64,000 bases of DNA from contig JBAQNM010000013.1 of assembly GCA_049303795.1 (NCBI GenBank), positions 78,415 to 142,414 of the forward strand. The letters are read 5' to 3'. The first letter of the stretch is position 1; the number at the start of each line of letters is the position of its first letter. Made by a program: the position numbers and the translations under genes. Under the pieces are notes generated by a model. That model was not told where the DNA came from, did not search any database, and saw only the letters and a list, made by a program, of their open reading frames with translations. Shown here one piece after another: positions 833 through 56,785 of this stretch. The DNA comes from Candidatus Moraniibacteriota bacterium. Lineage in GTDB: Bacteria; Patescibacteriota; Minisyncoccia; Moranbacterales; UBA2206.

Positions 833-993
833 ATAAATAGTGTTTTTTTAATGTTTATTCCTAACTACTTAATAAAGCATACTGCAAAAAGAGGTTTTTG
901 CAAATAGGCGGATAGGGTAGCGCGGGGATTTGAATAATTCGGTTAAATCAGGTAATATTAAAATAATTAAGCATAATTTAATAAAATACTACT

Positions 994-2502: not shown

Positions 2503-2538
2503 ATTTATAGTTGTATCGAAAAAATAAAATATTTTTTC

Positions 2539-2568
2539 TTGCTACTTTTTAACTTAGTATGCTATAAT
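2539..2568 (+). promoter_or_regulatory. Sigma70-like promoter (TTGCTA, 18 nt spacer, TATAAT) driving mini transcription unit 1
   Basis: -35 at 2539-2544 and a perfect -10 TATAAT at 2563-2568, read directly from the sequence. Confidence 0.5.
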
Positions 2569-2598
2569 GTTGGCGTAAGGAAAGGGGGGGACAGATAT

Positions 2599-2682
2599 AT
2601 GTTGAAATTTTCCAGAAACAATTTAACGATACTCGAAATGTGTTATCAGATAGATAGCACAGTAGTTGGTTTTTTAAATTGA
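2599..2682 (+). CDS. Mini-ORF 1 (27 aa, MLKFSRNNLTILEMCYQIDSTVVGFLN); may instead be a non-coding sRNA
   Basis: ATG lies 9 nt downstream of a G7 run (2584-2590). The ORF sits between a consensus promoter and an intrinsic terminator. It is absent from the ORF track because it is under 60 aa. Confidence 0.3.
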   Translation: MLKFSRNNLTILEMCYQIDSTVVGFLN

Positions 2683-2693
2683 ATAGTTTTCCA

Positions 2694-2720
2694 AAAAACG
2701 CTGTGTGGCGTTTTTTTTTG
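2694..2720 (+). terminator. Intrinsic terminator (AACGC-TGTGTG-GCGTT followed by T9)
   Basis: Stem-loop plus U-run at 2697-2719. Confidence 0.6.
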
Positions 2721-2761
2721 TAGTTAAAGTGGCAATAGAAAGCCATTTAAAGCGTTTTGTC

Positions 2762-2790
2762 TTGACAAAATTGATTTTATCTGCTATTAT
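2762..2790 (+). promoter_or_regulatory. Sigma70-like promoter (TTGACA, 17 nt spacer, TATTAT) driving mini transcription unit 2
   Basis: Consensus -35 at 2762-2767 and -10 at 2785-2790. Confidence 0.55.
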
Positions 2791-2833
2791 TCCAAGTCAA
2801 TTTTAATAGGCAAGCAGTGGGGGGGGTAAGATT

Positions 2834-2911
2834 ATGAAAATGCTTAAAGTAAAATTAATAGGTTCCAAATCAACAAAACCAATCGTTTCTGTTATTGAGG
2901 TTTTGATTTAA
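2834..2911 (+). CDS. Mini-ORF 2 (25 aa, MKMLKVKLIGSKSTKPIVSVIEVLI); may instead be a non-coding sRNA
   Basis: ATG lies 7 nt downstream of a G8 run (2819-2826). Flanked by a consensus promoter and a terminator, with the same architecture and transcript length (~145 nt) as unit 1. Confidence 0.3.
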   Translation: MKMLKVKLIGSKSTKPIVSVIEVLI

Positions 2912-2920
2912 ATATTTACT

Positions 2921-2945
2921 AAACCGCTTTTTTGCGGTTTTTTTA
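2921..2945 (+). terminator. Intrinsic terminator (AAACCGC-TTTTTT-GCGGTTT followed by T-run)
   Basis: Perfect 7-bp stem at 2921-2940 followed by Ts. Confidence 0.65.
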
Positions 2946-2983
2946 TTGAAATAGTATTAATTAGTTTAGGTAAATAAAATTAT

Positions 2984-4012
2984 ATGGGTTTAAAAAAATC
3001 TGATCTACTAAAAAGTGAAGTAAAGCACATTGATATCAAAAAAATTGATGCAACTAATATTGTTGAATCAATGAAGAATATGTCGTTTACTGCGAGAGAT
3101 TTAGCTAGAGGTGCTGAAATTTTCAATCAAATGTTAGAGGATAAGGACTGTGTAACAATCTTAACTTTAGCTGGAAGTTCAAGTGCAGCAGGATGTATGC
3201 AGGTCTATGTTGATATGATAAAAAATAACATGATTGATGTTGTTGTTTCAACAGGTGCCAGTATTGTAGATATGGATTTTTTTGAAGCCTTGGGTTTTAA
3301 GCATTATAAAGGAACATCAACAATTGACGATACTCTCCTGCGAGGATTGTATATTGATAGAATTTATGACACATTTATTGACGAAGATGAATTGCAAAAA
3401 TGTGATTTAGTTATTGAAGAAATTGCCAATAGTCTTGATCCAAAAGCCTATTCTTCTCGAGAATTTATTTGGGAAATGGGAAAATATCTTTCAAAGCATG
3501 CTAAAAAGAAAGATTCTTTAGTTCAGGCTGCCTATGAAAACAACGTTCCAATTTTCTGTCCAGCTTTTTCTGACTCTAGCGCTGGCTTTGGCTTAGTAGT
3601 ACATCAAGTTAAAAATCCTGATAATCATATTTCTATCGATTCAGTGAAAGATTTTAGAGAGTTGACTGAAATAAAGATAAAATCAGGAAACACCGGAATG
3701 TTTATTATTGGCGGTGGTGTTCCAAAAAATTTCACACAGGATACAATTATTTGCGCAGAAACATTAGGACATACAGTTCCTATGCATAGATATGCAGTGC
3801 AGATTACCGTAGCTGATGTTCGTGATGGAGCTTGCTCCAGTTCAACCTTGAAGGAAGCTAGTTCATGGGGCAAGGTGGGAACCGCTTTTGAGCAAATGGT
3901 TTTTGCTGAAGCGACTTCCGTTCTGCCTTTAATGGCCAGCTATGTTTACCATAAAGGAGCTTGGAAAAACAGAAAGAAGCACGAATTAGCTAAAATGTTT
4001 GAGAAAAAATAA
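2984..4012 (+). CDS. Deoxyhypusine synthase-like protein (DHS family)
   Basis: 342 aa. VPIFCPAFSDSSAG matches the IPVFSPALTDGSLG motif, GMFIIGGGVPKNF matches GMIILGGGVVKHH, and EASSWGKV matches the catalytic-lysine motif EAVSWGKI of eukaryotic and archaeal DHS. Confidence 0.8.
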   Translation: MGLKKSDLLKSEVKHIDIKKIDATNIVESMKNMSFTARDLARGAEIFNQMLEDKDCVTILTLAGSSSAAGCMQVYVDMIKNNMIDVVVSTGASIVDMDFFEALGFKHYKGTSTIDDTLLRGLYIDRIYDTFIDEDELQKCDLVIEEIANSLDPKAYSSREFIWEMGKYLSKHAKKKDSLVQAAYENNVPIFCPAFSDSSAGFGLVVHQVKNPDNHISIDSVKDFRELTEIKIKSGNTGMFIIGGGVPKNFTQDTIICAETLGHTVPMHRYAVQITVADVRDGACSSSTLKEASSWGKVGTAFEQMVFAEATSVLPLMASYVYHKGAWKNRKKHELAKMFEKK

Positions 4013-4157
4013 AGATACTTCAAATCAAGAAAAAGCTTAAAAGAAAGTCATTTTCCTTGATTTCCTAAATAGGCCAGTTTTAAGGCCTGTTTTTGTGTAC
4101 TTAAAAATATCACGACTTATCTCTTGCTTTATATAAGCCAACAATATCTTACTGTGT

Positions 4158-4186
4158 TTGACAAAAAGGCATTTTAGGTGTATAAT
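4158..4186 (+). promoter_or_regulatory. Consensus sigma70 promoter (TTGACA, 17 nt spacer, tgTATAAT) upstream of the 4256 gene
   Basis: -35 at 4158-4163 and extended -10 at 4179-4186. RBS TAGGAGGG precedes the ATG at 4256. Confidence 0.6.
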
Positions 4187-4255
4187 TAAAAATCACTTAG
4201 CATAGGGCTTTGTGGTGAGTTACTTAAAAATAAAATATTTCCATAGGAGGGTGAA

Positions 4256-5257
4256 ATGCATATTCCAATGTGGTTGCTGTTTGCATTAATTTCGCCCTTC
4301 GCCAACGCCCTGGTGAATGTCGTAGATGTGTATTTTGCAAAGGGCGTATATGAAAATGAGTGGGACGGTGCTGCGGTCAGTTGTATGTTTAAGGTTTTTG
4401 TATTGCCCGCTCTGCTCATCTGGGTAGTTTGGCAAGGGGAATCCCAAATCGTTTTGAGTCAATTTTCCGAAATTGACAAAAATCTTTTTGGACTGGCATT
4501 TATCGGAGGGATATTTTATTCTCTCTCCAGTTACTTCTATTTCCGGGCAGTGATGTCTGGAAAAGCTGATGTAGTTTTCATTGAAGCCCTGTTCAACTTA
4601 ACGGCTGTGTTTGTTCCAGTGCTAGCAGTTCTTGTACTGGGCAAAGTTTTAACGGTCAATCAATGGATTGGGGTAGTCCTGGCATGCCTAGGAGCATTCG
4701 TGCTCTATGTCAGAGCTCAGGACTTGTCGGTGGAAAATCTCATTGGAAAGAAAACAGCATCGATGATTATGGCTTCAATTTGTCTTTCAATTTGTATTGT
4801 AATTGAAAACAAAGTTTATGAAGCTGCTCCGTTCATTCCCATTTTCTGCGTATTCTCTTGTGGATGTTTTATGACCGGATGCTCGTATGCTGTTGTGCGG
4901 AAAATGAAAAAAATGCAAAGTCTGAGCGGACTTTGCCGAAGATTTTTTCTCATTTTCATTATTATGGAAACTCTAGAGCTGATTGGTGTGCTCAACCAAG
5001 AACTCGCGCTGTCGATGACGGAATCGTATCACGTCTCTACGGTGTATTGTTTCCAGCCAGTATTCGCGCTAGTAATATCCGGTATGATGCTGGTCATATT
5101 CTCAACCATCGCCTTGTTTCCGAAAAGATTTCGGAAGCTTCAGGTGAAACTGAATGGACTTGCCAAAGAAGTTCATGCAGATCAGGCAGGCAACCTTTGG
5201 GCGAAAGCTTTCGGTATCGTGGCTATAACTATAGCTGTGATATTGGTTAGCTGTTAG
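4256..5257 (+). CDS. Polytopic membrane protein (~10 TM), possible DMT/EamA-like transporter; compositionally GC-rich relative to its neighbours
   Basis: 333 aa of hydrophobic repeats. Local GC is visibly higher than the flanking genes, and a spurious 130-aa overlapping ORF (4858-5250) appears in another frame, which is typical of higher GC. Confidence 0.5.
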   Translation: MHIPMWLLFALISPFANALVNVVDVYFAKGVYENEWDGAAVSCMFKVFVLPALLIWVVWQGESQIVLSQFSEIDKNLFGLAFIGGIFYSLSSYFYFRAVMSGKADVVFIEALFNLTAVFVPVLAVLVLGKVLTVNQWIGVVLACLGAFVLYVRAQDLSVENLIGKKTASMIMASICLSICIVIENKVYEAAPFIPIFCVFSCGCFMTGCSYAVVRKMKKMQSLSGLCRRFFLIFIIMETLELIGVLNQELALSMTESYHVSTVYCFQPVFALVISGMMLVIFSTIALFPKRFRKLQVKLNGLAKEVHADQAGNLWAKAFGIVAITIAVILVSC

Positions 5258-5291
5258 TCAGCGGTGAAATTAACTTTTCACCGCTTTTTTT
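5258..5291 (+). terminator. Intrinsic terminator (CAGCGGTGAAA...TTTCACCGCT followed by T7)
   Basis: 10-bp stem lies immediately after the stop codon at 5255-5257. Confidence 0.7.
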
Positions 5292-5292
5292 A

Positions 5293-5522
5293 TCTAAAAA
5301 TAGTTAGGTTATTTTTATTCTTGACGCTACGCTATAATTCATGCGATACTAAGCTTAGCGATATGCAAAATAATCACATAACAAAAAGAAGTTGTTGTTG
5401 TCTCGATATTAATATCTCGAGAAATTTTTGTTTTTGATTAAATAAGTTTAAAGATAGCTAAGCAAAAAATATTTCTCGAGACAATCGAGATTTTTTAATT
5501 TAATAAATAATAATTTAATTTT
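5293..5522 (+). promoter_or_regulatory. Structured leader upstream of cysteine synthase, with a -10 TATAAT at 5334-5339 and two terminator-like hairpins built from the same TCTCGA/TCGAGA arms (5401-5423 and 5474-5496)
   Basis: TCTCGA(5401)...TCGAGA(5418) followed by a T-rich tract. TCTCGAGA(5474)-CAA-TCGAGA(5485) followed by T6, ending ~30 nt before the ATG. Confidence 0.4.
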
Positions 5523-6425
5523 ATGATTTACAATAACATATTAGGACTAATTGGAAATACGCCGATGGTAAAAATTAATAAGTTTAAACTAAAAAAAGGA
5601 GTTGAAATTTTTGCTAAATTGGAAGGTGCCAATCCCGGAGGAAGTATTAAAGACAGGATTGCTTTGAAGATGATCCAAGAAGCAATTAAAAAAGGAAAAC
5701 TGACCAAGAAAAAAATTATCATTGAGCCGACTTCTGGCAATACTGGAATTGGTCTAGCTATGATCGGAACTATTTTGGGCTATTCAGTGGAAATCGTGAT
5801 GAGTGAATCCGTTTCAGTTGAAAGGCGAAAAATGATTGAAGCGTTTGGCGCTAAAATAATCCTAACTGATCCTGAGAAAGGGACGGACGGGGCAATCCTA
5901 AAAGCGCGGGAATTGGTCAGAAAAAATCCAAGGATATATTTCATGCCCGATCAATTTTCCAATAAGAATAATAAGTTGGCACATTATGAAGCGACGGCTA
6001 AAGAAATTTGGGCAGATATGAACGGAAAAATAGATTATTTAGTTTCTTCGATTGGAACTTCTGGCACGATAATGGGAGTGCGTGAATATCTGAAAAAACT
6101 AAATCCAAAAATAAAAATAGTTTGTGCTTATCCGGAAAAAGGCCACTACATTCAAGGACTTAAAAACATGGAAGAGGCGATTGTGCCAAAATTATATGAT
6201 AAAAATAAGATTGATGAGTTTATTACCATTCCAACCGAAAAAGCTTTTGAAATAGCAAGAGCCTTAGCTAGAAAGGAAGGTCTTTTTGTTGGCATGTCGA
6301 GTGGAGCGGCAATGCTGGGGGCACTAGAGATTGCCAAGAAAATTCGTTCTGGAAGAATCGTAGTCATTTTTCCAGATAGGGGGGAAAAATATTTGAGTAC
6401 GGAGTTGTTTGATAGGGCCGATTAA
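5523..6425 (+). CDS. cysK: Cysteine synthase / O-acetylserine sulfhydrylase family (PLP-dependent, CysK/CysM/CBS fold)
   Basis: 300 aa. The PLP-lysine motif (GGSIKDR) and the glycine-rich loop (TSGNTGIGLA) are present. Confidence 0.8.
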   Translation: MIYNNILGLIGNTPMVKINKFKLKKGVEIFAKLEGANPGGSIKDRIALKMIQEAIKKGKLTKKKIIIEPTSGNTGIGLAMIGTILGYSVEIVMSESVSVERRKMIEAFGAKIILTDPEKGTDGAILKARELVRKNPRIYFMPDQFSNKNNKLAHYEATAKEIWADMNGKIDYLVSSIGTSGTIMGVREYLKKLNPKIKIVCAYPEKGHYIQGLKNMEEAIVPKLYDKNKIDEFITIPTEKAFEIARALARKEGLFVGMSSGAAMLGALEIAKKIRSGRIVVIFPDRGEKYLSTELFDRAD

Positions 6426-6495
6426 GGTTTGGGCTATTTAATGCTATACTTTAGTAAAGAAGTTTTTTTAATCCCCAATCAATTTTATTAAATAA

Positions 6496-7008
6496 ATGCT
6501 TATATTTTTATGGATTTTTTGGTTGCTATTGATTTCGACAGCCTACGTTTATAAAACAACGAATGCTCCATTAATTCTCAGTCCTGAAAAAGGAACAATA
6601 TTGGCGCTTGAATTTATTAATCCTCAAAAAGGCGCTATTTTTTATGATTTAGGATGTGGAACAGGGAGGACTCTTATTTTAGCAGAAAAAAAATTCGGAT
6701 TGCGTTCGACTGGCTTTGAATTGGCTATCACTTCCTATGTGGTTGGTAAAATTAATCTTTTTTTGCGCAAATCAAAAAATTCGAAAATTATTTTTAAAAA
6801 TCTTTATAGGGTGCCACTCAATAAGGTGGATATCGTTTTTTGTTTTTTAAATATCAAAGCAATGGAAAAATTAGAGGAAAAACTTGAAAAAGAAATGAAG
6901 CAGGGAGGTTGGTTGATTTCCTATTGCTTTTCCTTAAAAAAAAGAAAACCCACAAAAATTATTATTTCAAAAAATAAACATACTTTCTATCTTTATAAAT
7001 ATTTATGA
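6496..7008 (+). CDS. Class I SAM-dependent methyltransferase with N-terminal TM helix
   Basis: 170 aa. DLGCGTG motif I is present, and there is an N-terminal hydrophobic segment. Confidence 0.6.
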   Translation: MLIFLWIFWLLLISTAYVYKTTNAPLILSPEKGTILALEFINPQKGAIFYDLGCGTGRTLILAEKKFGLRSTGFELAITSYVVGKINLFLRKSKNSKIIFKNLYRVPLNKVDIVFCFLNIKAMEKLEEKLEKEMKQGGWLISYCFSLKKRKPTKIIISKNKHTFYLYKYL

Positions 7009-7100
7009 TGCAATTGGTTTGATATAAACCTTATATTACATCCTGCTTTCCAATTTTAAACAACATGCTATATTGAAGGTATCTCAAGTAGTGCCATATA

Positions 7101-7952
7101 ATGTCAATTAATATGTGCCAAATAGAAACACCTCCATTTATATTCTATTCTTATATCTCAACAATAATCCTGAGTCTTATTACCGCTTTCAGCGTTATAT
7201 ACAAAAAAATGAAGTATTCCTTAAATCGGAATGCTTTTTATTTTATTCTGATTATAGCGCTATGGACGGTTGGAGACTTGATTTTGTGGATAGCACGTTA
7301 TTCATCAATAAATCAAGTTCTTTATAGGTCATCCTATCTTATCGATTCTTTTTTTATATTTTTTCTCTATTTTGCATATGATTTCGCCGGTGAAAAATTA
7401 AGCCAGAAAAGAAAACTGATTTTTGCCTTGCCACTTTTCGTTACGATTTTTTCAGTAATTAGTGGTTATGGAATTGGGCATATGGAAAATGACACTTGTA
7501 TTTATAAACCGGGTTGGCTAATTTATTATAGTCTCCCATTTAATCTTATATATTCCATTTGGGCATCAGTCGTGCTTATAAGAAAATATAAAGATCCTAT
7601 ATTGCTTTACAGAACAAAATCACAGATTAAACCTCTAGTTTTGGCGATTATGTTTTTTGTTTTGTGGACTATCGTCTATGAAGTGATGAATATTCTCAGT
7701 GAAATGAAAAAATTAAACATAGAAATCTCATCTTACTTTGTGTTGGGCAATTTATTTTTTATTACGCTTATAATTTTTAATATCGCTGAATGTGATCTTT
7801 TCGAATTTAAACTTATTGCCAGAAAATGGTTTATATTAGTTGTTTTTTCAATTATTTTTTTTGGCATGTTTTTTCTTTCTCTTGTTCCAATGTTTTATTT
7901 GATACTACTAATATTTTATATTGTAACCGTTTGGGTTTTTTTAAAGATGTAA
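7101..7952 (+). CDS. Standalone polytopic membrane sensor-like domain, paralogous to the N-terminal domain of the histidine kinase at 8929
   Basis: 283 aa with 7-8 TM helices. ALWTVGDLILWIAR aligns with SLWSFLDLILWAQN of the HK N-terminus. No cytoplasmic output domain. Confidence 0.55.
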   Translation: MSINMCQIETPPFIFYSYISTIILSLITAFSVIYKKMKYSLNRNAFYFILIIALWTVGDLILWIARYSSINQVLYRSSYLIDSFFIFFLYFAYDFAGEKLSQKRKLIFALPLFVTIFSVISGYGIGHMENDTCIYKPGWLIYYSLPFNLIYSIWASVVLIRKYKDPILLYRTKSQIKPLVLAIMFFVLWTIVYEVMNILSEMKKLNIEISSYFVLGNLFFITLIIFNIAECDLFEFKLIARKWFILVVFSIIFFGMFFLSLVPMFYLILLIFYIVTVWVFLKM

Positions 7953-8013
7953 TGTTATGAATTGGTATCGATGGTTGTCCTTTTTTGTTTTTAAGCAAAA
8001 CTGATATTTAAAT

Positions 8014-8042
8014 TTGAACAACAACAAATAGTATGTTATAAT
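8014..8042 (+). promoter_or_regulatory. Sigma70-like promoter (TTGAAC, 17 nt spacer, TATAAT) for the PRMT-like/HK operon
   Basis: -35 at 8014-8019 and -10 at 8037-8042. Confidence 0.5.
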
Positions 8043-8087
8043 AAAAAAAATGAATCAACATTTTAACTAAATTAAATTAAATTTTTT

Positions 8088-8924
8088 ATGTCTGAAGGAA
8101 AACAATATTGGTCAATGACAGAGGGCGCTTTTTATTGTCTGTATGATAAAAAAAGGACTTTGGCTTTTAGAAAAGCTATAAAAAATACGGTCAAAAAAGG
8201 AGATGTGGTTGTTGATATGGGAACTGGTACTGGAGTTTTGGCTATGTTTGCAGTAGATGCTGGAGCGAAAATTGTTTATGCTGTAGAGTATGACGAAGGT
8301 AATATTAGAACACTTGAGCAAATTTTTAAAACAAACGGATATGGCGAAAAGATAGTTTTGATTAAAGGCGATGTCACAAAAATTAATCTTTCACAAGAGG
8401 CAGATGTGATAATTGGAGAGATGATTGCTACTGGATTAGTTGAAGAGCTTCAGATACCTGCCATGAATAATATGCTGAGGTTTTTAAAAAAAGGTGGAAA
8501 AGTTTTACTAGATAGGTATGAAATATATATCGATTTAGTTTCAAATAAGGATAAATTTTATAATCGAAAATTTAAAATAATTCGCTATGAATTCCCAGAT
8601 AAACCTTCAATGAAGTCAGTTGGCTTATCTGAAAAAATTAATATCAGAAGTGTTGATTTTAATAGAAAAAATGAAGATAATAGGATTGATAAAAGAATAT
8701 CTATTGTCATTATGAAAGGCGGCATTATAAATGGAATAAGGATAAGTGGAGTTACTAGATTTTATGATGGCTCATCTTTTGGGGAATCTATCGCGTATAG
8801 TTTTCCGGTAATACTTCCTACTGATGATTTTGTAGTTAAAAAAGGAGATGTTTTTGTAGTAAACATTTCTTATGAAATGTGTAAGGGTTTTGAGGGTTTA
8901 GATTATTCAATTTGTAAAAAATAA
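8088..8924 (+). CDS. Protein arginine N-methyltransferase (PRMT)-like class I SAM methyltransferase
   Basis: 278 aa. YWSMTEGAFYCLYDKKRTLAFRKAI aligns with PRMT1 [28 protein letters not shown]. Motif I VVDMGTGTGVLAMFAVDAGAKIVYAVE, motif II DVIIGEMIATGL (DIIISEWMG in PRMT1) and FLKKGGKVL (LLKPGG) are present, followed by a ~130-aa C-terminal domain. Confidence 0.6.
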   Translation: MSEGKQYWSMTEGAFYCLYDKKRTLAFRKAIKNTVKKGDVVVDMGTGTGVLAMFAVDAGAKIVYAVEYDEGNIRTLEQIFKTNGYGEKIVLIKGDVTKINLSQEADVIIGEMIATGLVEELQIPAMNNMLRFLKKGGKVLLDRYEIYIDLVSNKDKFYNRKFKIIRYEFPDKPSMKSVGLSEKINIRSVDFNRKNEDNRIDKRISIVIMKGGIINGIRISGVTRFYDGSSFGESIAYSFPVILPTDDFVVKKGDVFVVNISYEMCKGFEGLDYSICKK

Positions 8925-8928
8925 AAAA

Positions 8929-10665
8929 ATGGAAAACTTATTTTGTGTTAAGGATGGACCACTTTTTTGGGTATATGCTAAGGATGTGCCAAATATTCTT
9001 TATTATTCTCATGTGCCAGCCGCTATCATTTCGTTAATGATGGGAATATTTATTTTCCTTAGCAATAGGAAACTATTAGGGAAAATTTTATTTTCCCTAA
9101 CTTTCGCTTTTTCATTATGGTCTTTCCTGGATTTAATTTTATGGGCTCAAAATGATAGTAGCATGGTGATGTTTTTTTGGGCTATGATTATCTTAGTTGA
9201 AGAGTTTATTTTTATCATGGGCCTTTATTTAACATATGTCTTTATTAGCAATAAAGATGCATCTTCGATTAAGAAAATTATTATTGGAATATTATTTTTA
9301 CCAGCTATTATTTTAACTTCTACAAAATTTAATTTGCTCGGGTTTAATCTGAGTGAGTGTGTAAGTATCGAAGGATTTATGGCTTTAAATTACGGGTATA
9401 TCTTAGAAATGGTTTTAATATTTTTAATAGTAATAGTTTCCTTTGTTGGTTATTTTAAACAAAAGGACATTGTAATTAAAAAACAAATAGCTTATTTCTC
9501 ATTAGGTATGATTTTATTTCTATTTTCATTTGCTGGTGCGAATTTAATAAGTAGTTTAACTGGAACGGATCTTGGTTGGGAGTATGGAAATTATGGACTT
9601 TTTGGCATGCCAATATTTATCGGCTTTCTTGCATATCTCATTGTTCGTTATAAAGCCTTTGATATCAAATTAATGGCTGTTCAGGCGCTGGTGATTGCGA
9701 TGATTATTCTGATTGGATCGCAATTCTTTTTTATTAGAAATTTCACTAATAAAGTTCTTACTGGGATTACGATAGTTCTTTCTGGTGTTGGTGGGTATAT
9801 GCTTATAAGATCAGTAAAAAAAGAAGTGCAAAAAAATGAGGAACTGGCGCTTGCTAATGCTGAAATTAATGAACGCAAAGAGCAATTACAAAAAATTTCC
9901 GATAGCTTGGCGGTTTCCAATGATAGATTGAAACAACTCGATACCGCTAAAACCGAATTTATTTCCATGGCTTCTCATCAATTGCGCACGCCAGTAACTG
10001 GAATCAAGGGCTATCTCTCGATGCTCCTAGAAGGTTCATATGGCGAAGTGACTTCCGAACAAAAAGTGGCCATGCAAAAAGCCTATGATAGCAATGAGCG
10101 AATGGTGACGCTTATTGAAGACTTGCTGAATGTTTCGCGCATTGAATCCGGTCGCTTGGAATATGTTTTTGCTAAAACTAAAATCGAAGATCTTTGTCAA
10201 GAGGTTGTAAATACTCTTTTCCCTAAAGCAGTCGATAGGGGTCTTTATTTGGAATATACCAAGCCGGAAATTGATTTACCGGAAATCTGGATTGATGGAA
10301 TCAAAGTGCGCGAGGTGATTTCCAATTTAGTTGATAATGCTTTGAAATATACGCCTAGAGGCGGGGTGCGACTTAAGGTTGACTTGTGTGATAGAAAAGA
10401 GGCTGAGTGTCTTTTGACGCCACACATACGCATCACTGTTTCTGACACAGGCATTGGTGTTCCCAAAGAAGAAATACCATATCTTTTCAATAAGTTTTCT
10501 CGTGGTAAAGATATTAGTCGCCTCAATGCTGGAGGAACTGGCCTGGGACTTTTTGTCGGTCGAAAAATGATCGAAGGTAATTCCGGAAAAGTTTGGCTTG
10601 AATCTGAAGGCAAAGATAAAGGCTCGAGATTTATTATCGAGTTGCCGATTGAGAAAGGGGAATAA
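8929..10665 (+). CDS. Sensor histidine kinase (multi-TM N-terminal sensor domain, coiled coil, HisKA, HATPase_c)
   Basis: 578 aa. H-box SMASHQLRTP, N-box DNALKYT, G-boxes DTGIGV and GGTGLGL. There is a 4-nt gap from the upstream gene, indicating an operon. Confidence 0.85.
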   Translation: MENLFCVKDGPLFWVYAKDVPNILYYSHVPAAIISLMMGIFIFLSNRKLLGKILFSLTFAFSLWSFLDLILWAQNDSSMVMFFWAMIILVEEFIFIMGLYLTYVFISNKDASSIKKIIIGILFLPAIILTSTKFNLLGFNLSECVSIEGFMALNYGYILEMVLIFLIVIVSFVGYFKQKDIVIKKQIAYFSLGMILFLFSFAGANLISSLTGTDLGWEYGNYGLFGMPIFIGFLAYLIVRYKAFDIKLMAVQALVIAMIILIGSQFFFIRNFTNKVLTGITIVLSGVGGYMLIRSVKKEVQKNEELALANAEINERKEQLQKISDSLAVSNDRLKQLDTAKTEFISMASHQLRTPVTGIKGYLSMLLEGSYGEVTSEQKVAMQKAYDSNERMVTLIEDLLNVSRIESGRLEYVFAKTKIEDLCQEVVNTLFPKAVDRGLYLEYTKPEIDLPEIWIDGIKVREVISNLVDNALKYTPRGGVRLKVDLCDRKEAECLLTPHIRITVSDTGIGVPKEEIPYLFNKFSRGKDISRLNAGGTGLGLFVGRKMIEGNSGKVWLESEGKDKGSRFIIELPIEKGE

Positions 10666-10960: not shown

Positions 10961-11521
10961 ATGCACGATATAATGGCGATTTTAGCTATAATAGGTATTT
11001 TAGTTCTTGCAATACTACCTCTTATATTAGGGACGCTGAGTCTTTTAGTTGGGATTTTGCTTATATTAAAATGTATAAAGGAAAAAAAGAATAATTCAAA
11101 AAAAGCTATTTTATATTTAGTAGCTTTTTTCGTATGCATTTTAGTTAGTATTTATTTATTGTATTTTTTTGTTACTTTTCGTTCAAGATGGAATAGTTCA
11201 GTCGATCACAATTATGACGTAGAATCTTTCGCAGGATGTTATGGCCAAGGAAAAACGACTTGGGATTCATACGAAACCTTAACGGAAGATGAGATAGCTG
11301 AATCGATAAAGCAGTTGCATATTTCGAGGAAAAAATTTGAGGAAGTAAGGGATGAGTGTATAAAGTCTCAACAAATTTCATCATTTGCTGGATGTAGTGG
11401 AAGAAAACATAATTGGAGGCGCTGGGATGAAATGAATGAGAAAGAATTCGAAGACACTTTAAAATATTTTAATATAAGTAGAGAAAAATTTGAAAAAAGA
11501 AGAGAGAGCTGCTCAAATTAA
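10961..11521 (+). CDS. Membrane protein with two N-terminal TM helices and two tandem ~45-aa repeats (SFAGCxG...IS/TREKFE...C)
   Basis: 186 aa. The internal repeats are visible by eye (SFAGCYGQGKTTWDSYETLTEDE... and SFAGCSGRKHNWRRWDEMNEKE...). Confidence 0.5.
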   Translation: MHDIMAILAIIGILVLAILPLILGTLSLLVGILLILKCIKEKKNNSKKAILYLVAFFVCILVSIYLLYFFVTFRSRWNSSVDHNYDVESFAGCYGQGKTTWDSYETLTEDEIAESIKQLHISRKKFEEVRDECIKSQQISSFAGCSGRKHNWRRWDEMNEKEFEDTLKYFNISREKFEKRRESCSN

Positions 11522-11629: not shown

Positions 11630-13774
11630 ATGCATTATTTTCGAATGGTTTCTTTGGTAATCGGTGTCGTATTGGCAATGGCGAGTAACTCTTTTGCTAT
11701 TAATGATGACCTAAGTTGGGCGGCAAAGTGGCTTTTACCAGGTGATCAGTTTGATTCAAAAGATGAGAGAGAATGGACATCTGAAAAAGGCTATATCTAT
11801 GGACACGGCAATCTCATCACTGCAAAGCTTAGATTTGATGATGAAGCAATAAACACTTTCAGGCATCAAATTGGAGGTTCGTATCATTTTGGACTCGAGC
11901 TTGACATCGTTGAATGTAGTTGCGATGGAAATAGTCCGCAACTTGTAACTGCCAGCATTCAGCATTCTCTTCCTTTATCGACCAGGCCGGTTATGGACAC
12001 AGATTTTGGTGACAGTATAACTAACAGTGGAAATTGTAAATCGAACGGAGGCGACCCATATGTTGTTGGAGCGTTAATGATTAGAGAACCTCAATATTTG
12101 GAATCCGGTGTCGATTATTACGTCTTCTACTATCTTGAAGATTGTATTCCTGCATCAGGGGTTAATTTGCATTTAACCTTAAAACTCACTCAGTATGTGC
12201 CAGTTATCAAAGCATTGTCTTATGATTTCGTATACGGCAGTATTATTAATGGGATACGTATCTATTTTGGCAATGATGATGTCTTGGATATTTTTAATTA
12301 TTTTGTTGTTGAAAGCGATTCCTATGAAAGTTTTATCGCTAAGCCTACAGGATATAATGGAACGCGCTGGTCAGATAAAGTATTAAGTACTCCATGTGTC
12401 ATTGAAGATCATGATATGTGTGTTGGGCTCGAACAAAGTCAAGTAAAAAGAACATTTTTATCCCTCATTCCATCGTTTGTTTCAATAGCATATGCAAGCG
12501 ATTGCGTACCAACTAGTACTGCTTCCAAGCAAGCTATGTATGTTGGTGATCTTGGGATTCCTGTTGACTATGATGGGACATCTCCTCCAGGCGATCCTAT
12601 AATCCCAACTCTCCCCGGCCCATTTCCCAATCTCCACATCGAAGAGCTTAATCTCCACGATTCCGCCTACAATAAACTGCCCGACGACGGTACTGCCTAT
12701 CTCAAACCCGGCGAAACATATGAAATTCATGTCTGGCCAGAATCAACTGAAGAACATTGTCTGTGCGGAACAAATAATGAAGAAATCGAAGTCATCACCG
12801 ACACTTATGTTAAAATCGGAATTTCTCAAGAAGATGGAAATTGGATGCGCATCAAACGTTCCTATACGCACTGTAAATATATGGACGAAGATGATTCCAA
12901 AAAAGAAGTTTTCTTCTGGACGGTTCCTTTTGACGCTGCCGGAAAACTAATTGCCTTCAAAGCCAAAGTCGATTCAACTAACATCATCAGAGAATCTAAC
13001 GAAGATGATAATGGTTGCGATATTGAATATTATCCGGTTGAAGGCTATTGTCCTAGTTGTCCTGATTTTGTTTCCAAAAATGTCAAACTTACTTGCGGAA
13101 AAACCGAACTAAATCTTGGTGATAAATTCGGCTTAGAGGCTGATATTTTAAATCAAGGCAGTTCCGATTGTCCTATTGATATTCACGGCGCTTATTATCT
13201 CAAAACTCCCAATGCAACCAGCTGGGTAAATATCGCTGATGATACCAGTGGAGCTTCAGGACTTAGCGTTGGAGAAATTGAACACGAATACACAACGGAC
13301 TCTCCCTTCACCGCTAATGTTATTGGCACCTGGCAAGGCATGTTCTGCGCTGACTATCAAAATCAAGTTCGCGAACAAAACGAAGACAATAATTGTCAAA
13401 CTTTCAGCTTTAAAGTTAATCCGGTCGGACCGGATTTTATTGTCTCCAGCTTAGGCTTTAAGGAAGGATTATCCTTCAAACGTAAAATCTCATCCCACCC
13501 CTGGGCCATCATTAGAAACATTGGCAATCAAACTCCCAAATCCAGTATCCGCATTGCTTATTACATCGATGGAGTCTTTCGTGATGATGACACAATCGAA
13601 GCCAGCGAACTCACTCCCGGACGCGATCAATTCGAAAGCGTTCTTAACAACAGTATCAATCTTGGTGACTGGGGCACTAGAACCCTCACTGTCAAAGTGG
13701 ACATTGATGGCAAAGTCGTTGAACTCAATGAGAGCAACAACTCCTCATCAGTTAAATTCACTGTAATTCGATAA
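11630..13774 (+). CDS. Large secreted Cys-rich protein with C-terminal CARDB-like repeats
   Basis: 714 aa. Signal peptide MHYFRMVSLVIGVVLAMASNSFA. Many Cys pairs. Three C-terminal repeats end in E.NE.NN motifs (ESNEDDNGC, REQNEDNNC, ELNESNNSS) characteristic of CARDB domains. GGAGG RBS. Patches of elevated GC. Confidence 0.6.
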   Translation: MHYFRMVSLVIGVVLAMASNSFAINDDLSWAAKWLLPGDQFDSKDEREWTSEKGYIYGHGNLITAKLRFDDEAINTFRHQIGGSYHFGLELDIVECSCDGNSPQLVTASIQHSLPLSTRPVMDTDFGDSITNSGNCKSNGGDPYVVGALMIREPQYLESGVDYYVFYYLEDCIPASGVNLHLTLKLTQYVPVIKALSYDFVYGSIINGIRIYFGNDDVLDIFNYFVVESDSYESFIAKPTGYNGTRWSDKVLSTPCVIEDHDMCVGLEQSQVKRTFLSLIPSFVSIAYASDCVPTSTASKQAMYVGDLGIPVDYDGTSPPGDPIIPTLPGPFPNLHIEELNLHDSAYNKLPDDGTAYLKPGETYEIHVWPESTEEHCLCGTNNEEIEVITDTYVKIGISQEDGNWMRIKRSYTHCKYMDEDDSKKEVFFWTVPFDAAGKLIAFKAKVDSTNIIRESNEDDNGCDIEYYPVEGYCPSCPDFVSKNVKLTCGKTELNLGDKFGLEADILNQGSSDCPIDIHGAYYLKTPNATSWVNIADDTSGASGLSVGEIEHEYTTDSPFTANVIGTWQGMFCADYQNQVREQNEDNNCQTFSFKVNPVGPDFIVSSLGFKEGLSFKRKISSHPWAIIRNIGNQTPKSSIRIAYYIDGVFRDDDTIEASELTPGRDQFESVLNNSINLGDWGTRTLTVKVDIDGKVVELNESNNSSSVKFTVIR

Positions 13775-13991: not shown

Positions 13992-15620
13992 ATGTCTAAT
14001 TTGAGGGAAAAAAATAACGGAAATTCAAAGGATCTCGTTTTCAATTACTATTTAAGTCGAATTAAAAAACGAGACGTTCATTTTCTTTTCATTATCCATC
14101 TCACTAGAACAATAGAAGTTTTTATTGAAAGTTGGCTGAAGAATTTTCCCAATGTAGGTGTTATATCAATCAATTATTCTGAGATTCCAGAAGTCAAAGA
14201 AAATATAAGCAAATATGCTCAAGTATATAGTCCTAGTGATGTCTCAGAAATACCAGAATTAATAACTAAAATTTGCAATCAAAATTTAAGCAAAAAAATT
14301 TGTACGATTGAAATTGGAGGATACTCTAGTCTAATAAAGAGAATCCCTGATAATATTATTGGAGCAGTTGAAGATACGAATCAAGGGCATTGGAGTTTCA
14401 AGCAAAATGAATCCCGGCTCACATATCCGGTCATAAGCATTGCCCAAACTAATCTTAAGAAAATTGAAAATAAATTTGTCGGATCTTCTATTAGTTATTC
14501 TTTGGAGAAATTCTTGCGAGATCATTTTCAAAGAGATCTGATAACGATCAAAAATATTTTAGTCATTGGTTATGGAGAAGTTGGCCGTGGAACAGCGAGA
14601 AAGCTTAAAAGCACACTAGCTAATGTTTTTGTTTATGACAGCGATCCAGTAAACACTATGCTGGCAAGATTGGATGGTTTTAATATCACTGATAGGATAT
14701 CAGCCATATCACAAGCAGACATAATTATTGGAGCATCAGGGCAGCAATCATTGCAAATGAGTGATTTTGTTTATTTAAAAAATAATTGCTTATTGATCAG
14801 TGCTTCATCTAGGCAAGTTGAATTTCCAATTGATGAAATAGAAAAAAATGTTATTAAAAAAAGTAGTTATATAAATTCCTATAGATCAGAAAACGGGCTT
14901 TTCTATGTCGCTTATAACGGATTTCCTATAAATTTTATCGATGATTCAGCTTTTGGAGAAATTTTTGATATCATTATGTCTAGCCTTCTTGTTGCTTCTG
15001 ACTATATTTTAGATTCAAATTTATTGCCAAAAGTTTATGACCTTGATTTGAGGTTGCAGCAAGATATAGTGAGAAAATATTTCGAATTATATGAAATGGA
15101 TAATCATGAAGTAATTTTTCAAACTGAGTTAATAAAAAATAAGCGTCATGATGCTGCTAGTGCTTTGATTGTTTCCAAAAATGCTTTTGGTAAATTATCT
15201 GTTCTACTATTAAATCATCCAAGAATTGGAAAGTGGATACCTATTGGAGGGCATGTGGAAAGATTTGAATCACCTGAAAGTGCTGTTCTGCGAGAATTGG
15301 AAGATGAAATAGGCATTTCTCCTATTTATTGGTTTGACAAAAAACTCAATCAACTAGTAACAGTGCCTGTTCTTTTTTGTGAAATGTTGGAAAAAATTGA
15401 TGCTCATAAAGATAGCCCTGTTCATTACCACAGAGATTATATTTATGTCGCCATGATTGATTATCAAATGGAGGATAAATTCACCGGGACAATTCCAACG
15501 GGAAGTTTAAAGTGGCTTGAAATTGATGATATTCTCAAGTTAGATATTGAAAAGACTACCCCTGAAACATTACAAATGATCAAGGATTTGAAGGTGCATG
15601 AAAAAGAATTGCTCGGGTAA
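13992..15620 (+). CDS. S-adenosyl-L-homocysteine hydrolase (SAHH)-like two-domain protein fused to a C-terminal NUDIX hydrolase domain
   Basis: 542 aa. [13 protein letters not shown] aligns with SAHH [44 protein letters not shown] aligns with [46 protein letters not shown]...[18 protein letters not shown] aligns with the NAD domain VAGYGDVGKGCA...TEIDPICALQAAMEGY. The C-terminal part carries a Nudix box, [24 protein letters not shown]. Confidence 0.6.
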   Translation: [542 protein letters not shown]

Positions 15621-56359: not shown

Positions 56360-56785
56360 TTATTTTTTTGTCAAATCGTCAAATCTATCTAATTGCATTT
56401 TGACTGACAATAATTCGGCGACCCTTTTAGATAGGTCTGTTGGTGTGATTTGGGTTTTTACAAAAAAAGATTCAACACCCATTTTTTCTACTTTTTTCTG
56501 TGTTTCAATATCAACTGAGGCTGAAATTATGATAACCGGCGTATCTTTAGTTTTTTCATCTTCTTTTAATTTTACCACAACTTCATCTCCACTCATTGCT
56601 GGCATCATCATGTCAATAATAAATAAATCAAACTCGCCACTTAAAGCTTCTTTGATTCCCCAAGCACCATTTTTTGCCGACAAAACCTCAAAGCCAGCCT
56701 TTCTGAGGCTCTCACTAAACATATCCACAAAAATCTCTTCGTCTTCAATTAATAAAATCTTAGGCATAAGTTTCTTGTAATCCAA
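56360..56785 (-). CDS. Standalone response-regulator receiver (REC, CheY-like) domain protein
   Basis: LLIEDEE, FIIDMMMP (phospho-acceptor Asp), IIISAS and K in FFVK form the REC signature. No output domain. Confidence 0.8.
   Translation of the reverse strand: MDYKKLMPKILLIEDEEIFVDMFSESLRKAGFEVLSAKNGAWGIKEALSGEFDLFIIDMMMPAMSGDEVVVKLKEDEKTKDTPVIIISASVDIETQKKVEKMGVESFFVKTQITPTDLSKRVAELLSVKMQLDRFDDLTKK

Follow-up and report, generated by a model that had tools for sequence, protein, structure and literature searches.

A PRMT-fold methyltransferase encoded beside a sensor histidine kinase in Candidatus Moraniibacteriota, a predicted guanidino-N-methyltransferase with polyamine-gene partners

We analyzed a stretch of 64,000 nucleotides from a Candidatus Moraniibacteriota bacterium (contig JBAQNM010000013.1, positions 78,415 to 142,414), referred to here as the window. 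It carries a gene for a SAM-dependent methyltransferase, which is followed by a sensor histidine kinase gene and preceded by a gene for a kinase-less relative of the kinase sensor (Table 1). The positions of these three reading frames agree with a preliminary description of the locus. Further upstream, the window encodes SpeY, for which all deoxyhypusine synthase models scored below their own cutoffs, and which is a candidate supplier of the methyltransferase substrate. Between SpeY and the methyltransferase lie four genes that look unrelated, and no decarboxylase gene was found within the 64-kb window. Downstream, an AdoHcyase_NAD–NUDIX fusion protein shows a weak association with the pair and could possibly remove S-adenosylhomocysteine for the methyltransferase; in a distant locus (L163), genes for AdoHcyase and SAM synthetase lie a few genes upstream of the methyltransferase–kinase pair.

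Table 1. Features of the window discussed in the text (positions in nucleotides from the first letter of the window).
Feature	Position	Strand	Remarks
SpeY, G44G synthase	2984-4012	+	Pfam DS 325 bits; NCBIfam NF002699.1 579.7 bits (cutoff 500)
EamA/DMT-family membrane transporter	4256-5257	+	candidate carrier of cationic product (putative role)
Kinase-less sensor paralog	7101-7952	+	283 aa; both conserved Cys kept; alternative start 7113
Promoter-like site	8014-8042	+	TTGAAC-17-TATAAT, extended -10 TG; 10/12 match; in 135-nt gap before methyltransferase gene
Methyltransferase ORF	8088-8924	+	278 aa; SAM-dependent, PRMT-fold; predicted guanidino-N-methyltransferase
Stop codon of methyltransferase gene	8922-8924	+	TAA
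Sensor histidine kinase ORF	8929-10665	+	578 aa; ATG at 8929, 4-nt gap after methyltransferase stop
AdoHcyase_NAD–NUDIX fusion protein	13992-15620	+	
Stand-alone receiver (REC) protein	56360-56785	-	candidate phosphoryl acceptor

The methyltransferase is a real PRMT-fold enzyme, built from a Rossmann domain and a C-terminal beta-barrel, and is neither PrmA nor RsmC. PRMTs dominate the matches of a fold search, and the class I SAM-binding domain contains the motifs VVDMGTGTG (41–49), E67, DVIIGEMI (106–113), and KKGGKV (133–138), which HMMER aligns to PRMT6, PRMT7, and CARM1 and which are invariant or nearly so among 25 orthologs. The PRMT signature read from the sequence earlier is thereby upheld, as is the fold proposed with it. 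In the ortholog alignment, D20, R23, the motif I residues D39, G45, G47, and G49, and the post-I residue E67 are unchanged; the D..RT..Y segment before motif I is likewise present, except that the position given as Y is F27 in this protein. The double-E loop of PRMTs comprises two glutamates, nine residues apart, which bind the substrate guanidinium. Its counterparts E111 and E120 are both invariant in the 25 orthologs, and their loop has the PRMT6 double-E loop (sEwmgygllhEs) as its HMMER alignment partner. Other PRMT features are altered or missing. In PRMTs, the THW loop supplies a histidine that pairs with an Asp in the D..RT helix; no THW motif occurs in the methyltransferase, although this Asp (D20) is kept. 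From a manual alignment with the PRMT1 sequence, we take the THW segment to correspond to AYS[YF]P (235–240), which would place Tyr237 at the His position. Compared with PRMT cores, some 40 residues are missing, and the predicted model contains no helices of four or more residues within 153–183, where type I PRMTs have their helical dimerisation arm; this region is an irregular segment with an invariant RYE[YF]PD motif. The CheR family was absent from the 21 Pfam matches and from the 25 NCBIfam matches listed.

The kinase contains a HisKA domain (PF00512, residues 340–408, 69.5 bits) and a HATPase_c domain (PF02518, residues 456–575, 83.1 bits), and belongs to the HisKA class, with H350 invariant and the N, D, and G boxes conserved in 22 orthologs. 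Its N-terminal 300 residues or so form a multi-helix sensor, with nine helices in the predicted model and conserved C6 and C144. The HisKA_7TM profile (PF16927) did not match the window kinase itself at E ≤ 0.1; it matched 5 of 15 orthologous sensor domains (best E 6.6e-9), and close homologs of the kinase bear a precomputed PF16927 label. The 4-nt gap proposed to mark an operon was confirmed, and the linkage is conserved in related genomes. In 27 of 48 non-redundant ortholog loci, the methyltransferase is followed on its own strand by the orthologous kinase, which has this same sensor domain, and the two genes lie 1–15 nt apart in 17 of the 26 loci for which the kinase ORF was extracted. The pair is retained in L163, though the methyltransferase there is only 34% identical. 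In two Peregrinibacteria-labelled loci a different kinase accompanies the methyltransferase, directly upstream on the same strand (L017) or 868 nt upstream on the opposite strand (L015). Part of the gene order in CPR is inherited from common ancestors, which makes adjacency seen solely within CPR less telling than it might seem.

The product of the upstream gene (279 aa in the NCBI gene call) had been described as a paralog of the kinase sensor, which holds: the BLASTP match is weak (2e-5), but HHalign aligns the two solidly (98.4%, E 5e-15, 232 columns). A stand-alone sensor paralog directly upstream of the methyltransferase was seen in no contigs but those from the same strain as the window, and kinase-less HisKA_7TM paralogs form tandem arrays elsewhere in these bacteria. 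The consensus promoter assigned to the methyltransferase gene exists as a site, but in this AT-rich region such matches are no more common than in shuffles (26 versus 28 ± 5), so the promoter is plausible rather than demonstrated. The REC gene is the only one in the window, as had been noted; its product is 42% identical to the C-terminal REC of a REC–REC protein encoded after the orthologous kinase in locus L003, and might be the partner of the window kinase.

Bacterial relatives of the methyltransferase are not as rare as was first supposed, with 259 among GTDB species representatives and 243 cluster representatives that reach E ≤ 1e-30. Orthologs that are 47–55% identical are found, without an adjacent kinase, on high-GC contigs labelled Actinobacteria or Proteobacteria (labels taken from metagenome bins), and an alignment that includes four such kinase-free sequences has 47 invariant columns. 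The enzyme is also better conserved than the kinase, with identities of 50–62% versus 30–56%.

The most widespread partners of the methyltransferase are agmatine and polyamine genes. Over the 48 ortholog loci, neighbours include homologs of SpeD-type decarboxylases (14), GARS-like ATP-grasp enzymes (13), SpeY (8), LPG_synthase_C-like proteins (8), EamA transporters (8), and SET domains (6, the SET domains being partners in proteobacteria-labelled loci). At least one of these six is present in 34 of the 48 loci, on both CPR and high-GC contigs. A pyruvoyl arginine decarboxylase (PvlArgDC), a GAMT homolog, GNAT, and NNMT-like proteins also occur among the partners. Where a SpeD homolog is clustered with SpeY it acts as an arginine decarboxylase, and SpeY converts agmatine into G44G (PMC10407285, PMC13625781, PMC10981699), joining two agmatine molecules into one bis-guanidino polyamine (PMC13625781; PMC10981699). 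The SpeD homologs found here score 74–81 on TIGR03330 (cutoff 75.65) and could be either arginine decarboxylases or true AdoMetDC.

Gene fusions add to this picture. PvlArgDC is fused to a PRMT-like domain in seven distinct 90% clusters, a Rosetta-stone arrangement; these fusions fall in a sister clade with only 33% identity to the window enzyme, and in one of them (P0281) the methyltransferase domain keeps the double-E loop and shows this 33% identity along the entire length of the enzyme. On a Thermomicrobiales contig, an unfused operon has the order PvlArgDC, PRMT-like, LPG_synthase_C, and GNAT. Further fusions join PRMT-like to LPG_synthase_C, SET to PRMT-like, PRMT-like to NNMT/PNMT-like, and PvlArgDC to NNMT-like domains. 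In loci L087 and L098, a full-length GAMT homolog (E 9e-40 to rat GAMT) is encoded between the PRMT-like gene and the kinase. Taken together, arginine decarboxylases, SpeY, the GAMT homolog, and NNMT-like, SET, LPG_synthase_C-like, GNAT, and EamA proteins, as neighbours or fusion partners across phyla, point to a small guanidino substrate. In Chloroflexota-type loci, SARP/MalT-type regulators flank the cassette, and by analogy the kinase would fill their role in CPR.

We therefore favour, with moderate confidence, a model in which the enzyme is a guanidino-N-methyltransferase of small molecules such as arginine, agmatine, or bis(guanidino)homospermidine-type compounds, and the kinase is a cluster-situated sensor or regulator. 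The double-E loop would clamp a guanidinium group, and the subfamily would most likely have free arginine, agmatine, or a cation derived from agmatine as its substrate, methylated at a guanidino nitrogen, and not arginine in proteins. In Parcubacteria-type CPR, the methyltransferase gene would have become translationally coupled to a HisKA_7TM kinase, a putative sensor or regulator of this cationic-metabolite module. The kinase may respond to the product, its precursor, or an envelope state affected by the product, and a stand-alone REC protein presumably receives its signal; the kinase-less paralog of the sensor could serve as a co-receptor or decoy, and the EamA/DMT transporter is a candidate carrier for the cationic product. 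What we infer in this model is which substrate the enzyme uses, which way information passes between it and the kinase, which REC protein is the partner, and what the transporter does. A bolder and improbable version would make the two genes a synthase–receptor pair, in which an N-methylated guanidino-polyamine (such as methyl-agmatine or methyl-G44G) is made, exported by EamA/DMT, and sensed outside by the GPCR-like kinase, with kinase-less paralogs as co-receptors or decoys. If so, ultra-small CPR bacteria would possess a methyl-guanidinium-based signal for cell–cell or host sensing, and PRMT chemistry would have been used on small cationic metabolites earlier than, or in parallel with, the methylation of arginine in proteins.

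The favoured model has to be weighed against the fact that enzymes with a PRMT fold are, elsewhere, mostly known to methylate arginine in proteins. The substrate could instead be an arginine in another conserved protein, such as a translation factor or a ribosomal protein, or in a peptide made on the ribosome, with polyamine genes and the kinase as neighbours for regulatory or historical reasons. The very high cross-phylum conservation of the enzyme suggests a conserved substrate, and proteins or peptides are also among the substrates that LPG_synthase_C-like and ATP-grasp enzymes can modify. SET domains, which are neighbours and also occur fused to a PRMT-like domain, are known as protein-lysine methyltransferases, so a protein or peptide substrate keeps some probability. 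Bacterial PRMT relatives have also been described as peptide methylases of secondary-metabolite operons (PMC3417536). Against this, the enzyme is repeatedly fused to or adjacent to arginine decarboxylases of two unrelated folds, a GAMT homolog, and small-molecule methyltransferases of NNMT-like type, and it has metabolite-transporter neighbours; the neighbourhoods examined show no consistent gene for a candidate substrate protein or precursor peptide. We regard a protein or peptide substrate as unlikely, though it is the strongest of the alternatives.

Somewhat less probable is that the adjacency of methyltransferase and kinase merely reflects inherited gene order and a shared transcript, the kinase controlling something unrelated. 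Compactness and synteny are typical of CPR genomes, the kinase is missing beside orthologs outside CPR, and the pair is interrupted in six loci, by another gene or by about 230–1,400 nt of unannotated sequence. Yet the two genes stay linked although their surroundings differ greatly on either side, and the linkage outlasts divergence of the kinase to 31% identity. The short gaps in 17 loci, the different kinases beside the same methyltransferase in Peregrinibacteria-labelled loci, and the distant pair in L163 likewise argue for a functional coupling.

The preliminary description had proposed that the enzyme methylates arginines of the kinase, its REC partner, or the sensor paralog and so tunes signalling in the manner of CheR and CheB. 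The tight, conserved operon, the PRMT fold, and the intact catalytic loop would fit this proposal, and in Salmonella a response regulator has been reported to be methylated on arginine (PMC8546571). However, orthologs that share the invariant residues of the CPR sequences lack an adjacent kinase, and the enzyme is more conserved than its supposed target, in which no arginine is conserved at 90% or more across 22 kinase orthologs (the H-box arginine reaches only 70–90%). Domain searches found no CheR, CheB, or MCP domains at the locus, no demethylase or CheB-like partner was seen, and the fusions involve arginine decarboxylase and small-molecule methyltransferases, never kinase or REC domains. 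The proposal is thus unsupported, and we consider it doubtful. Finally, the identity of the protein as ribosomal protein L11 methyltransferase (PrmA), under which name the identical protein P0001 stands at NCBI and which is also the top Pfam match (49.5 bits), is refuted as far as sequence and fold can tell, because that match is limited to the Rossmann part (profile positions 153–256 of 296), the NCBIfam PrmA equivalogs score 26–39 bits against cutoffs of 183–327, the N-terminal L11-binding domain of PrmA is absent, and a PRMT beta-barrel is present. The public name is probably wrong, and the model would correct a widespread misannotation, since public records give many members the name 50S ribosomal protein L11 methyltransferase or that of a predicted RNA methylase.

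If guanidino methylation of small molecules is correct, PRMT-fold methylation of agmatine-type or bis-guanidino polyamines would be a new activity and a new branch of the recently discovered agmatine/SpeY/G44G pathway, which would explain clusters without the expected ureohydrolase. It would also bear on the origin of eukaryotic PRMTs, since here is a bacterial clade with many members that has kept the double-E loop intact and apparently acts on small molecules. The locus would then be one of few conserved, testable Patescibacteria signalling modules, with the candidate ligand class of the kinase encoded alongside.

Several known systems resemble this locus in part. Compared with the cores of eukaryotic type I–III PRMTs (PRMT1, PRMT3, PRMT6, CARM1, and PRMT7), the window enzyme is shorter, has the RYE[YF]PD segment in place of the dimerisation arm and AYS[YF]P in place of the THW loop, and lacks N-terminal targeting domains; its context is agmatine and polyamine metabolism and a histidine kinase, and its predicted substrate is a small molecule. 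GAMT likewise methylates a guanidino nitrogen of a small molecule, as predicted for the window enzyme, but is a single-domain class I methyltransferase without beta-barrel or double-E loop, homologous only through the Rossmann fold. CheR and CheB share with the locus a genetic link between SAM-dependent methylation and a membrane signalling protein, but CheR belongs to a different methyltransferase family and methylates chemoreceptor glutamates, and CheB is an esterase. CqsA/CqsS, AgrBD/AgrC, and cluster-situated regulators also couple a biosynthetic gene to a membrane kinase without a large extracytoplasmic domain; the likeness to CqsA/CqsS and AgrBD/AgrC is a functional analogy, as neither enzyme nor sensor is homologous to these.

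Closer in setting are the bacterial PRMT-like peptide or arginine methylases of secondary-metabolite clusters (Aravind et al, as cited in PMC3417536), and the arginine-guanidino methyltransferase SznE/StzE, which makes N-omega-methyl-L-arginine (PMC11705231). These share the small-molecule or peptide operon setting and act on non-protein guanidino groups, as predicted for the window enzyme (SznE being compared by description only). Their partners are NRPS, dioxygenases, and N-nitrosating enzymes, whereas those found here are arginine decarboxylases, SpeY, LPG_synthase_C-like, GNAT, GAMT-like, and EamA proteins, and a dedicated HisKA_7TM kinase is a feature of the CPR members. The SpeDA/SpeY (CdmS) pathway from agmatine through G44G to homospermidine likewise clusters a SpeD-type homolog with SpeY. 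In that pathway, guanidino groups are removed by a SpeB-type ureohydrolase or an AguA-type iminohydrolase, and its descriptions do not mention a methyltransferase (PMC10407285, PMC13625781, PMC10981699); in the clusters described here, no ureohydrolase or iminohydrolase gene was noticed beside SpeY, and a PRMT-fold methyltransferase is present instead.

Sequence comparisons identified the 278-aa methyltransferase as a predicted PRMT-fold enzyme with intact SAM- and guanidinium-binding residues, which is not a textbook PRMT. The preliminary description had proposed a PRMT-type fold rather than PrmA, and this is borne out by PDB-sequence matches, invariant motifs and sub-cutoff PrmA equivalog scores. 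PRMTs accounted for all 60 of the matches listed in a PDB sequence search, from PRMT7 (5e-17) to Hsl7/PRMT5 (9e-6), and with a profile of 25 orthologs PRMT7 improved to 5e-29. Invariant across the alignment of these orthologs are D20 and R23 in the D..RT helix, the motif I glycines, the post-I residue E67, and E111 and E120, which lie nine residues apart and are aligned by HMMER to both glutamates of the PRMT6 double-E loop. In the predicted model, residues 153-183 are irregular and form no helical dimerisation arm; this segment contains an invariant RYE[YF]PD. The ortholog alignment also contains no THW motif, and the segment that we take to be its equivalent, placed by aligning PRMT1 by hand, reads AYS[YF]P. 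Because the arm and the THW loop are missing and protein-arginine activity is only putative, we classify the enzyme as PRMT-fold and not as a PRMT.

A Candidatus Moraniibacteriota assembly encodes an identical protein (P0001), annotated as a 50S ribosomal protein L11 methyltransferase; public names in its family are inconsistent, with predicted RNA methylase and, at times, protein arginine N-methyltransferase 1 also in use. In Pfam, PrmA is the top match (49.5 bits, covering only the Rossmann part of the model), and the PRMT5 model also scores above its cutoff. A PrmA identity was rejected, as the NCBIfam PrmA equivalogs reach 26-39 bits against cutoffs of 183-327, and neither the fold nor the equivalog scores support the L11 methyltransferase name. 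A CheR-like assignment was discarded as well, with no CheR match in Pfam or NCBIfam searches. An aminopropyltransferase using decarboxylated SAM, considered because of SpeD neighbours, was judged unlikely, since Arg23, which binds the SAM carboxylate, is invariant, as is the entire PRMT SAM-binding set.

The three reading frames of the sensor paralog, the methyltransferase and the kinase lie exactly where they had been placed, all on the plus strand (Table). Four nucleotides separate the methyltransferase stop codon (TAA, 8922-8924) from the kinase ATG, and a spacer of 135 nt precedes the methyltransferase gene. The consensus promoter proposed in this spacer, TTGAAC-17-TATAAT with an upstream TG, does exist, but its significance did not hold up: promoter-like matches in the AT-rich region number 26, against 28 +/- 5 in shuffled sequence, without enrichment. 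Because such sites are no commoner than in shuffles, the promoter is plausible, not demonstrated. Within the kinase coding region, near codons 50-58, lies a near-perfect 25-nt palindrome with an 11-bp stem (TTAGGGAAAATTTTATTTTCCCTAA), flagged as terminator-like on both strands. The small methyltransferase MT170 has one N-terminal hydrophobic helix, and its top NCBIfam match is an archaeal protein-lysine N-methyltransferase model (57 bits, cutoff 200). MT170, the PALP gene and the sensor paralog, the last directly 5' of the methyltransferase, adjoin it in same-strain contigs only and in none of the other genomes compared. Likewise, two genes 3' of the kinase were found in this strain's contigs only; one product looks secreted and has a CARDB domain (precomputed Pfam hit), and the other is a membrane protein in which a Cys-containing motif is internally repeated. 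An AdoHcyase_NAD-NUDIX fusion gene follows 3.3 kb downstream of the kinase, and in the Paceibacterota locus L163 the methyltransferase-kinase pair is preceded, a few genes away, by genes for S-adenosylhomocysteine hydrolase and SAM synthetase.

Table. Coordinates of genes and sites in the window and in the compared loci
Sequence	Feature	Position	Strand	Remarks
Window	ProRS	994-2502	+	
Window	SpeY	2984-4012	+	
Window	EamA	4256-5257	+	
Window	PALP enzyme	5523-6425	+	
Window	MT170, small methyltransferase	6496-7008	+	170 aa
Window	Sensor paralog	7101-7952	+	283 aa
Window	Promoter-like site	8014-8042		
Window	PRMT-like methyltransferase	8088-8924	+	278 aa
Window	Kinase	8929-10665	+	578 aa
Window	Palindrome	9076-9100		
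Window	Membrane protein, Cys motif	10961-11521	+	186 aa
Window	CARDB protein	11630-13774	+	714 aa
Window	AdoHcyase_NAD-NUDIX fusion	13992-15620		
Window	REC gene	56360-56785	-	
L004	Pfam-less polytopic protein	3642-5970		two copies
L091	Pfam-less polytopic protein	2572-3663		
L166	Pfam-less polytopic protein	8136-8963		
L006	Tandem PRMT-like paralogs	4949-5800, 5986-6825		
L008	SET-SET-methyltransferase	4788-6834		GC 0.62
L011	SET-SET-methyltransferase	4731-6831		GC 0.62
L018	Small Cys-rich acidic protein	5536-5973		
L093	Small Cys-rich acidic protein	4596-4955		
L094	Small Cys-rich acidic protein	3217-3651		
L102	Small Cys-rich acidic protein	3795-4301		
L087	GAMT homolog	968-1681		
L098	GAMT homolog	2404-3114		
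L163	SAM-cycle genes and pair	1-6236		
L164	Kinase-less sensor array	1-8066		
L169	PvlArgDC::PRMT-like operon	6001-9242		
L170	Unfused PvlArgDC operon	5405-8633		Thermomicrobiales
L171	PvlArgDC::PRMT-like operon	6001-9197		

One genome per species and metagenome contigs were scanned, which together with contig look-ups yielded 48 non-redundant loci with methyltransferase orthologs (42-62% identical). When the neighbours were clustered and searched against Pfam and NCBIfam, six types of recurrent partner emerged: SpeD/AdoMet_dc homologs (14 of the 48 loci), GARS-like ATP-grasp proteins (13), deoxyhypusine-synthase homologs (SpeY), LPG_synthase_C-like proteins and EamA transporters (8 each), and SET-domain proteins (6). 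At least one of them is present in 34 loci (35 with the window's own upstream genes), in CPR and high-GC contigs alike. For example, on an actinobacterium-like 1-Mb contig (L166) the methyltransferase is convergent with SpeY and a SpeD homolog; a complete Campbellbacteria genome (L168) encodes a SpeD homolog, an ATP-grasp protein, the methyltransferase and the kinase in series; and two Sulfuritalea-labelled loci (L008, L011) have the order LPG_synthase_C-like, SET, SET, methyltransferase, EamA. The SET-SET-methyltransferase cassette of these betaproteobacteria-labelled contigs is also found in L009. The SpeD homologs score around the TIGR03330 cutoff, which does not tell AdoMetDC and SpeDA arginine decarboxylase apart; in published work, SpeD homologs that cluster with SpeY have neofunctionalised into arginine decarboxylases (PMC10407285). 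Almost none of 110 more distant PRMT-like loci (<42% identity) have polyamine or kinase partners, which rules out an association across all bacterial PRMT-like proteins and limits the guanidino inference to the window subfamily and the PvlArgDC-linked sister clade. A Pfam-less polytopic membrane protein, about 30% identical between CPR and actinobacterium-like copies, adjoins the PRMT-like gene in three loci (Table) and may be a dedicated transporter.

Fusions and inserted genes point in the same direction. A whole-library profile search returned 243 cluster representatives at E <= 1e-30, some with extra domains. In P0281, the PRMT-like part, which shares 33% identity with the full length of the window enzyme and retains the double-E loop, is fused to a pyruvoyl-dependent arginine decarboxylase (PvlArgDC). 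This fusion is recurrent (seven distinct 90% clusters from several sources, 54-79% identity) and occurs in operons with LPG_synthase_C-like and GNAT genes; a Thermomicrobiales contig carries the unfused PvlArgDC, PRMT-like, LPG_synthase_C and GNAT genes as an operon with overlapping stop and start codons. The cassette (P0281, P0347-P0352, P0444) is present in Thermomicrobiales-labelled and other high-GC contigs, where SARP/MalT-type regulators flank it, and looks like an undescribed cassette for an agmatine-derived metabolite. Other fusions join the PRMT-like domain to LPG_synthase_C (P0249), SET (P0252) or NNMT/PNMT/TEMT-type small-molecule methyltransferases (P0309, P0320, P0332), or PvlArgDC to an NNMT-like domain (P0444). 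Furthermore, in two CPR contigs a full-length homolog of guanidinoacetate N-methyltransferase (GAMT; E 9e-40 to the rat enzyme) is inserted between the PRMT-like gene and a HisKA_7TM kinase. A sister group, comprising 19 of the 150 best representatives (P0233, P0237, P0240, P0243 and 15 more), shares a 100-155-aa N-terminal extension, which in two of six members scanned matches a winged-helix domain (HTH_45 in P0240, TrmB in P0243) ahead of the PRMT-like domain.

The main reason to propose a small guanidino substrate is that two unrelated arginine decarboxylase folds, an enzyme that couples agmatine and a second small-molecule methyltransferase specific for guanidino groups all converge on the PRMT-like enzyme. 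SpeY joins two agmatines to form the bis-guanidino polyamine G44G (caldomycin), which is normally converted to homospermidine by ureohydrolases or iminohydrolases (PMC13625781, PMC10981699); the papers on the SpeD/SpeY pathway (PMC10407285, PMC13625781, PMC10981699) mention no methyltransferase. By analogy with these homologs, an arginine decarboxylase would supply agmatine and SpeY would form G44G; no decarboxylase gene was found within the 64-kb window. The 278-aa enzyme, with its predicted PRMT-type SAM site and guanidinium clamp, would then N-methylate the guanidino group of arginine, agmatine, G44G or an aminoacyl or acyl agmatine conjugate, and EamA or other polytopic carriers might move the methylated product. 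The kinase, which may respond to the product, to a precursor or to an envelope state, may serve as a cluster-situated sensor or regulator that signals to a stand-alone REC protein, a role for which the SARP/MalT-type regulators flanking the same cassette in Chloroflexota-type loci would be the counterpart. We give this model, a guanidino-N-methyltransferase for small molecules with an associated regulatory kinase, roughly even chances. Bacterial PRMT relatives have been described as peptide methylases of secondary-metabolite operons (PMC3417536), and another protein or peptide deserves some weight as the substrate; set against the convergence on guanidino metabolism, we consider it unlikely.

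The operon linkage put forward in the preliminary description is conserved in related genomes. An orthologous kinase follows on the same strand in 27 of the 48 loci, at a distance of 1-15 nt in 17 of the 26 loci with an extracted kinase ORF. These kinases share the sensor domain (31-49% identity there, 26-58% in the catalytic half). All 27 kinase-linked loci have a GC content of at most 0.54, and those with a name carry the labels Moraniibacteriota, Paceibacterota, Parcubacteria, Campbellbacteria or Saccharibacteria. Shared ancestry inflates the adjacency within CPR to some extent, and the kinase link could represent inherited synteny only, which we regard as improbable: the pair is kept in L163, where the methyltransferase is only 34% identical. 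In two Peregrinibacteria-labelled loci a different kinase lies upstream of the methyltransferase, directly and on the same strand (L017) or 868 nt away on the opposite strand (L015). In the Paceibacterota locus L006 the kinase is preceded by two PRMT-like paralogs in tandem, with 32% and 54% identity to the window enzyme; tandem paralogs also occur in L090.

In 14 loci whose downstream sequence extends for 1 kb or more, no HisKA_7TM-type kinase adjoins the methyltransferase. Most are high-GC contigs (0.54-0.69), unlabelled or labelled from metagenome bins as Acidimicrobiales, Sulfuritalea, Rhodocyclaceae or Haliea. Their methyltransferases remain 47-55% identical to the window enzyme, and four of them are among the 25 aligned sequences with 47 invariant columns; the constraints on catalysis and on the substrate-facing side are thus maintained in loci that lack the kinase. 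The methyltransferase is also more conserved than the kinase, and across 22 full-length kinase orthologs every arginine falls short of 90% conservation, even that of the H-box (70-90%). With these kinase-free orthologs, and with no demethylase or CheB-like gene seen among domain and neighbour annotations and no CheR match, the CheR/CheB-like methylation of the kinase or its partner that had been suggested from the operon is not supported: the kinase is probably not the substrate, and the kinase or REC protein as methyl acceptor is an improbable reading.

In the kinase itself, some 300 residues of membrane helices are followed by a HisKA (340-408) and a HATPase_c (456-575) domain. Its homologs are labelled HisKA_7TM (PF16927), a model matched by 5 of 15 orthologous sensor domains (best E 6.6e-9). 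The predicted sensor model (pLDDT 82) has nine helices and a beta-hairpin (136-148); a fold search found no solved relative at E <= 1e-3, and the top weak matches are GPCR seven-helix bundles (E 0.03-0.2, TM about 0.5). C6 and C144 are conserved among kinase orthologs and present in the 283-aa protein, and their positions suggest an extracytoplasmic disulfide. By profile comparison (HHalign probability 98.4%, E 5e-15, 232 columns), the latter is a genuine kinase-less paralog of the kinase sensor, as had been recognised earlier. In L164, at least four kinase-less HisKA_7TM proteins (336-354 aa) follow a HisKA_7TM kinase in tandem, with a single REC gene at the end; the L164/L165 array also contains interleaved small proteins and a fifth similar-sized protein without a Pfam match on record. 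REC genes directly follow the kinase in L003 and L086 and lie within 1-6 kb in several other loci. The window has one REC gene, as stated before, whose product is 42% identical to one of the kinase-associated RECs. Small proteins without a Pfam match, which combine a single N-terminal membrane helix with a Cys-rich and very acidic domain, adjoin the methyltransferase, kinase or kinase-less sensors (Table; also L001, L003, L010, L084 and L164/L165), in two loci between methyltransferase and kinase; they could be extracytoplasmic cation-binding accessories.

Literature searches returned no relevant report of a bacterial PRMT linked to a histidine kinase, of agmatine or guanidino-polyamine methyltransferases, or of HisKA_7TM ligands, and no description of a PRMT-fold enzyme tied to an agmatine/SpeY/G44G module, arginine decarboxylase fusions or a HisKA_7TM kinase. 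From the model one would predict a new enzymatic activity as well as an additional branch of a polyamine pathway that has only just been discovered. For an orphan family of sensors in CPR bacteria it suggests a class of candidate ligands; the work also bears on PRMT origin and corrects a common misannotation as L11 methyltransferase. Among known systems, SznE/StzE methylates the guanidino group of free arginine (PMC11705231). Compared with PRMTs, the window enzyme is the same by fold and differs in its missing arm and THW loop.
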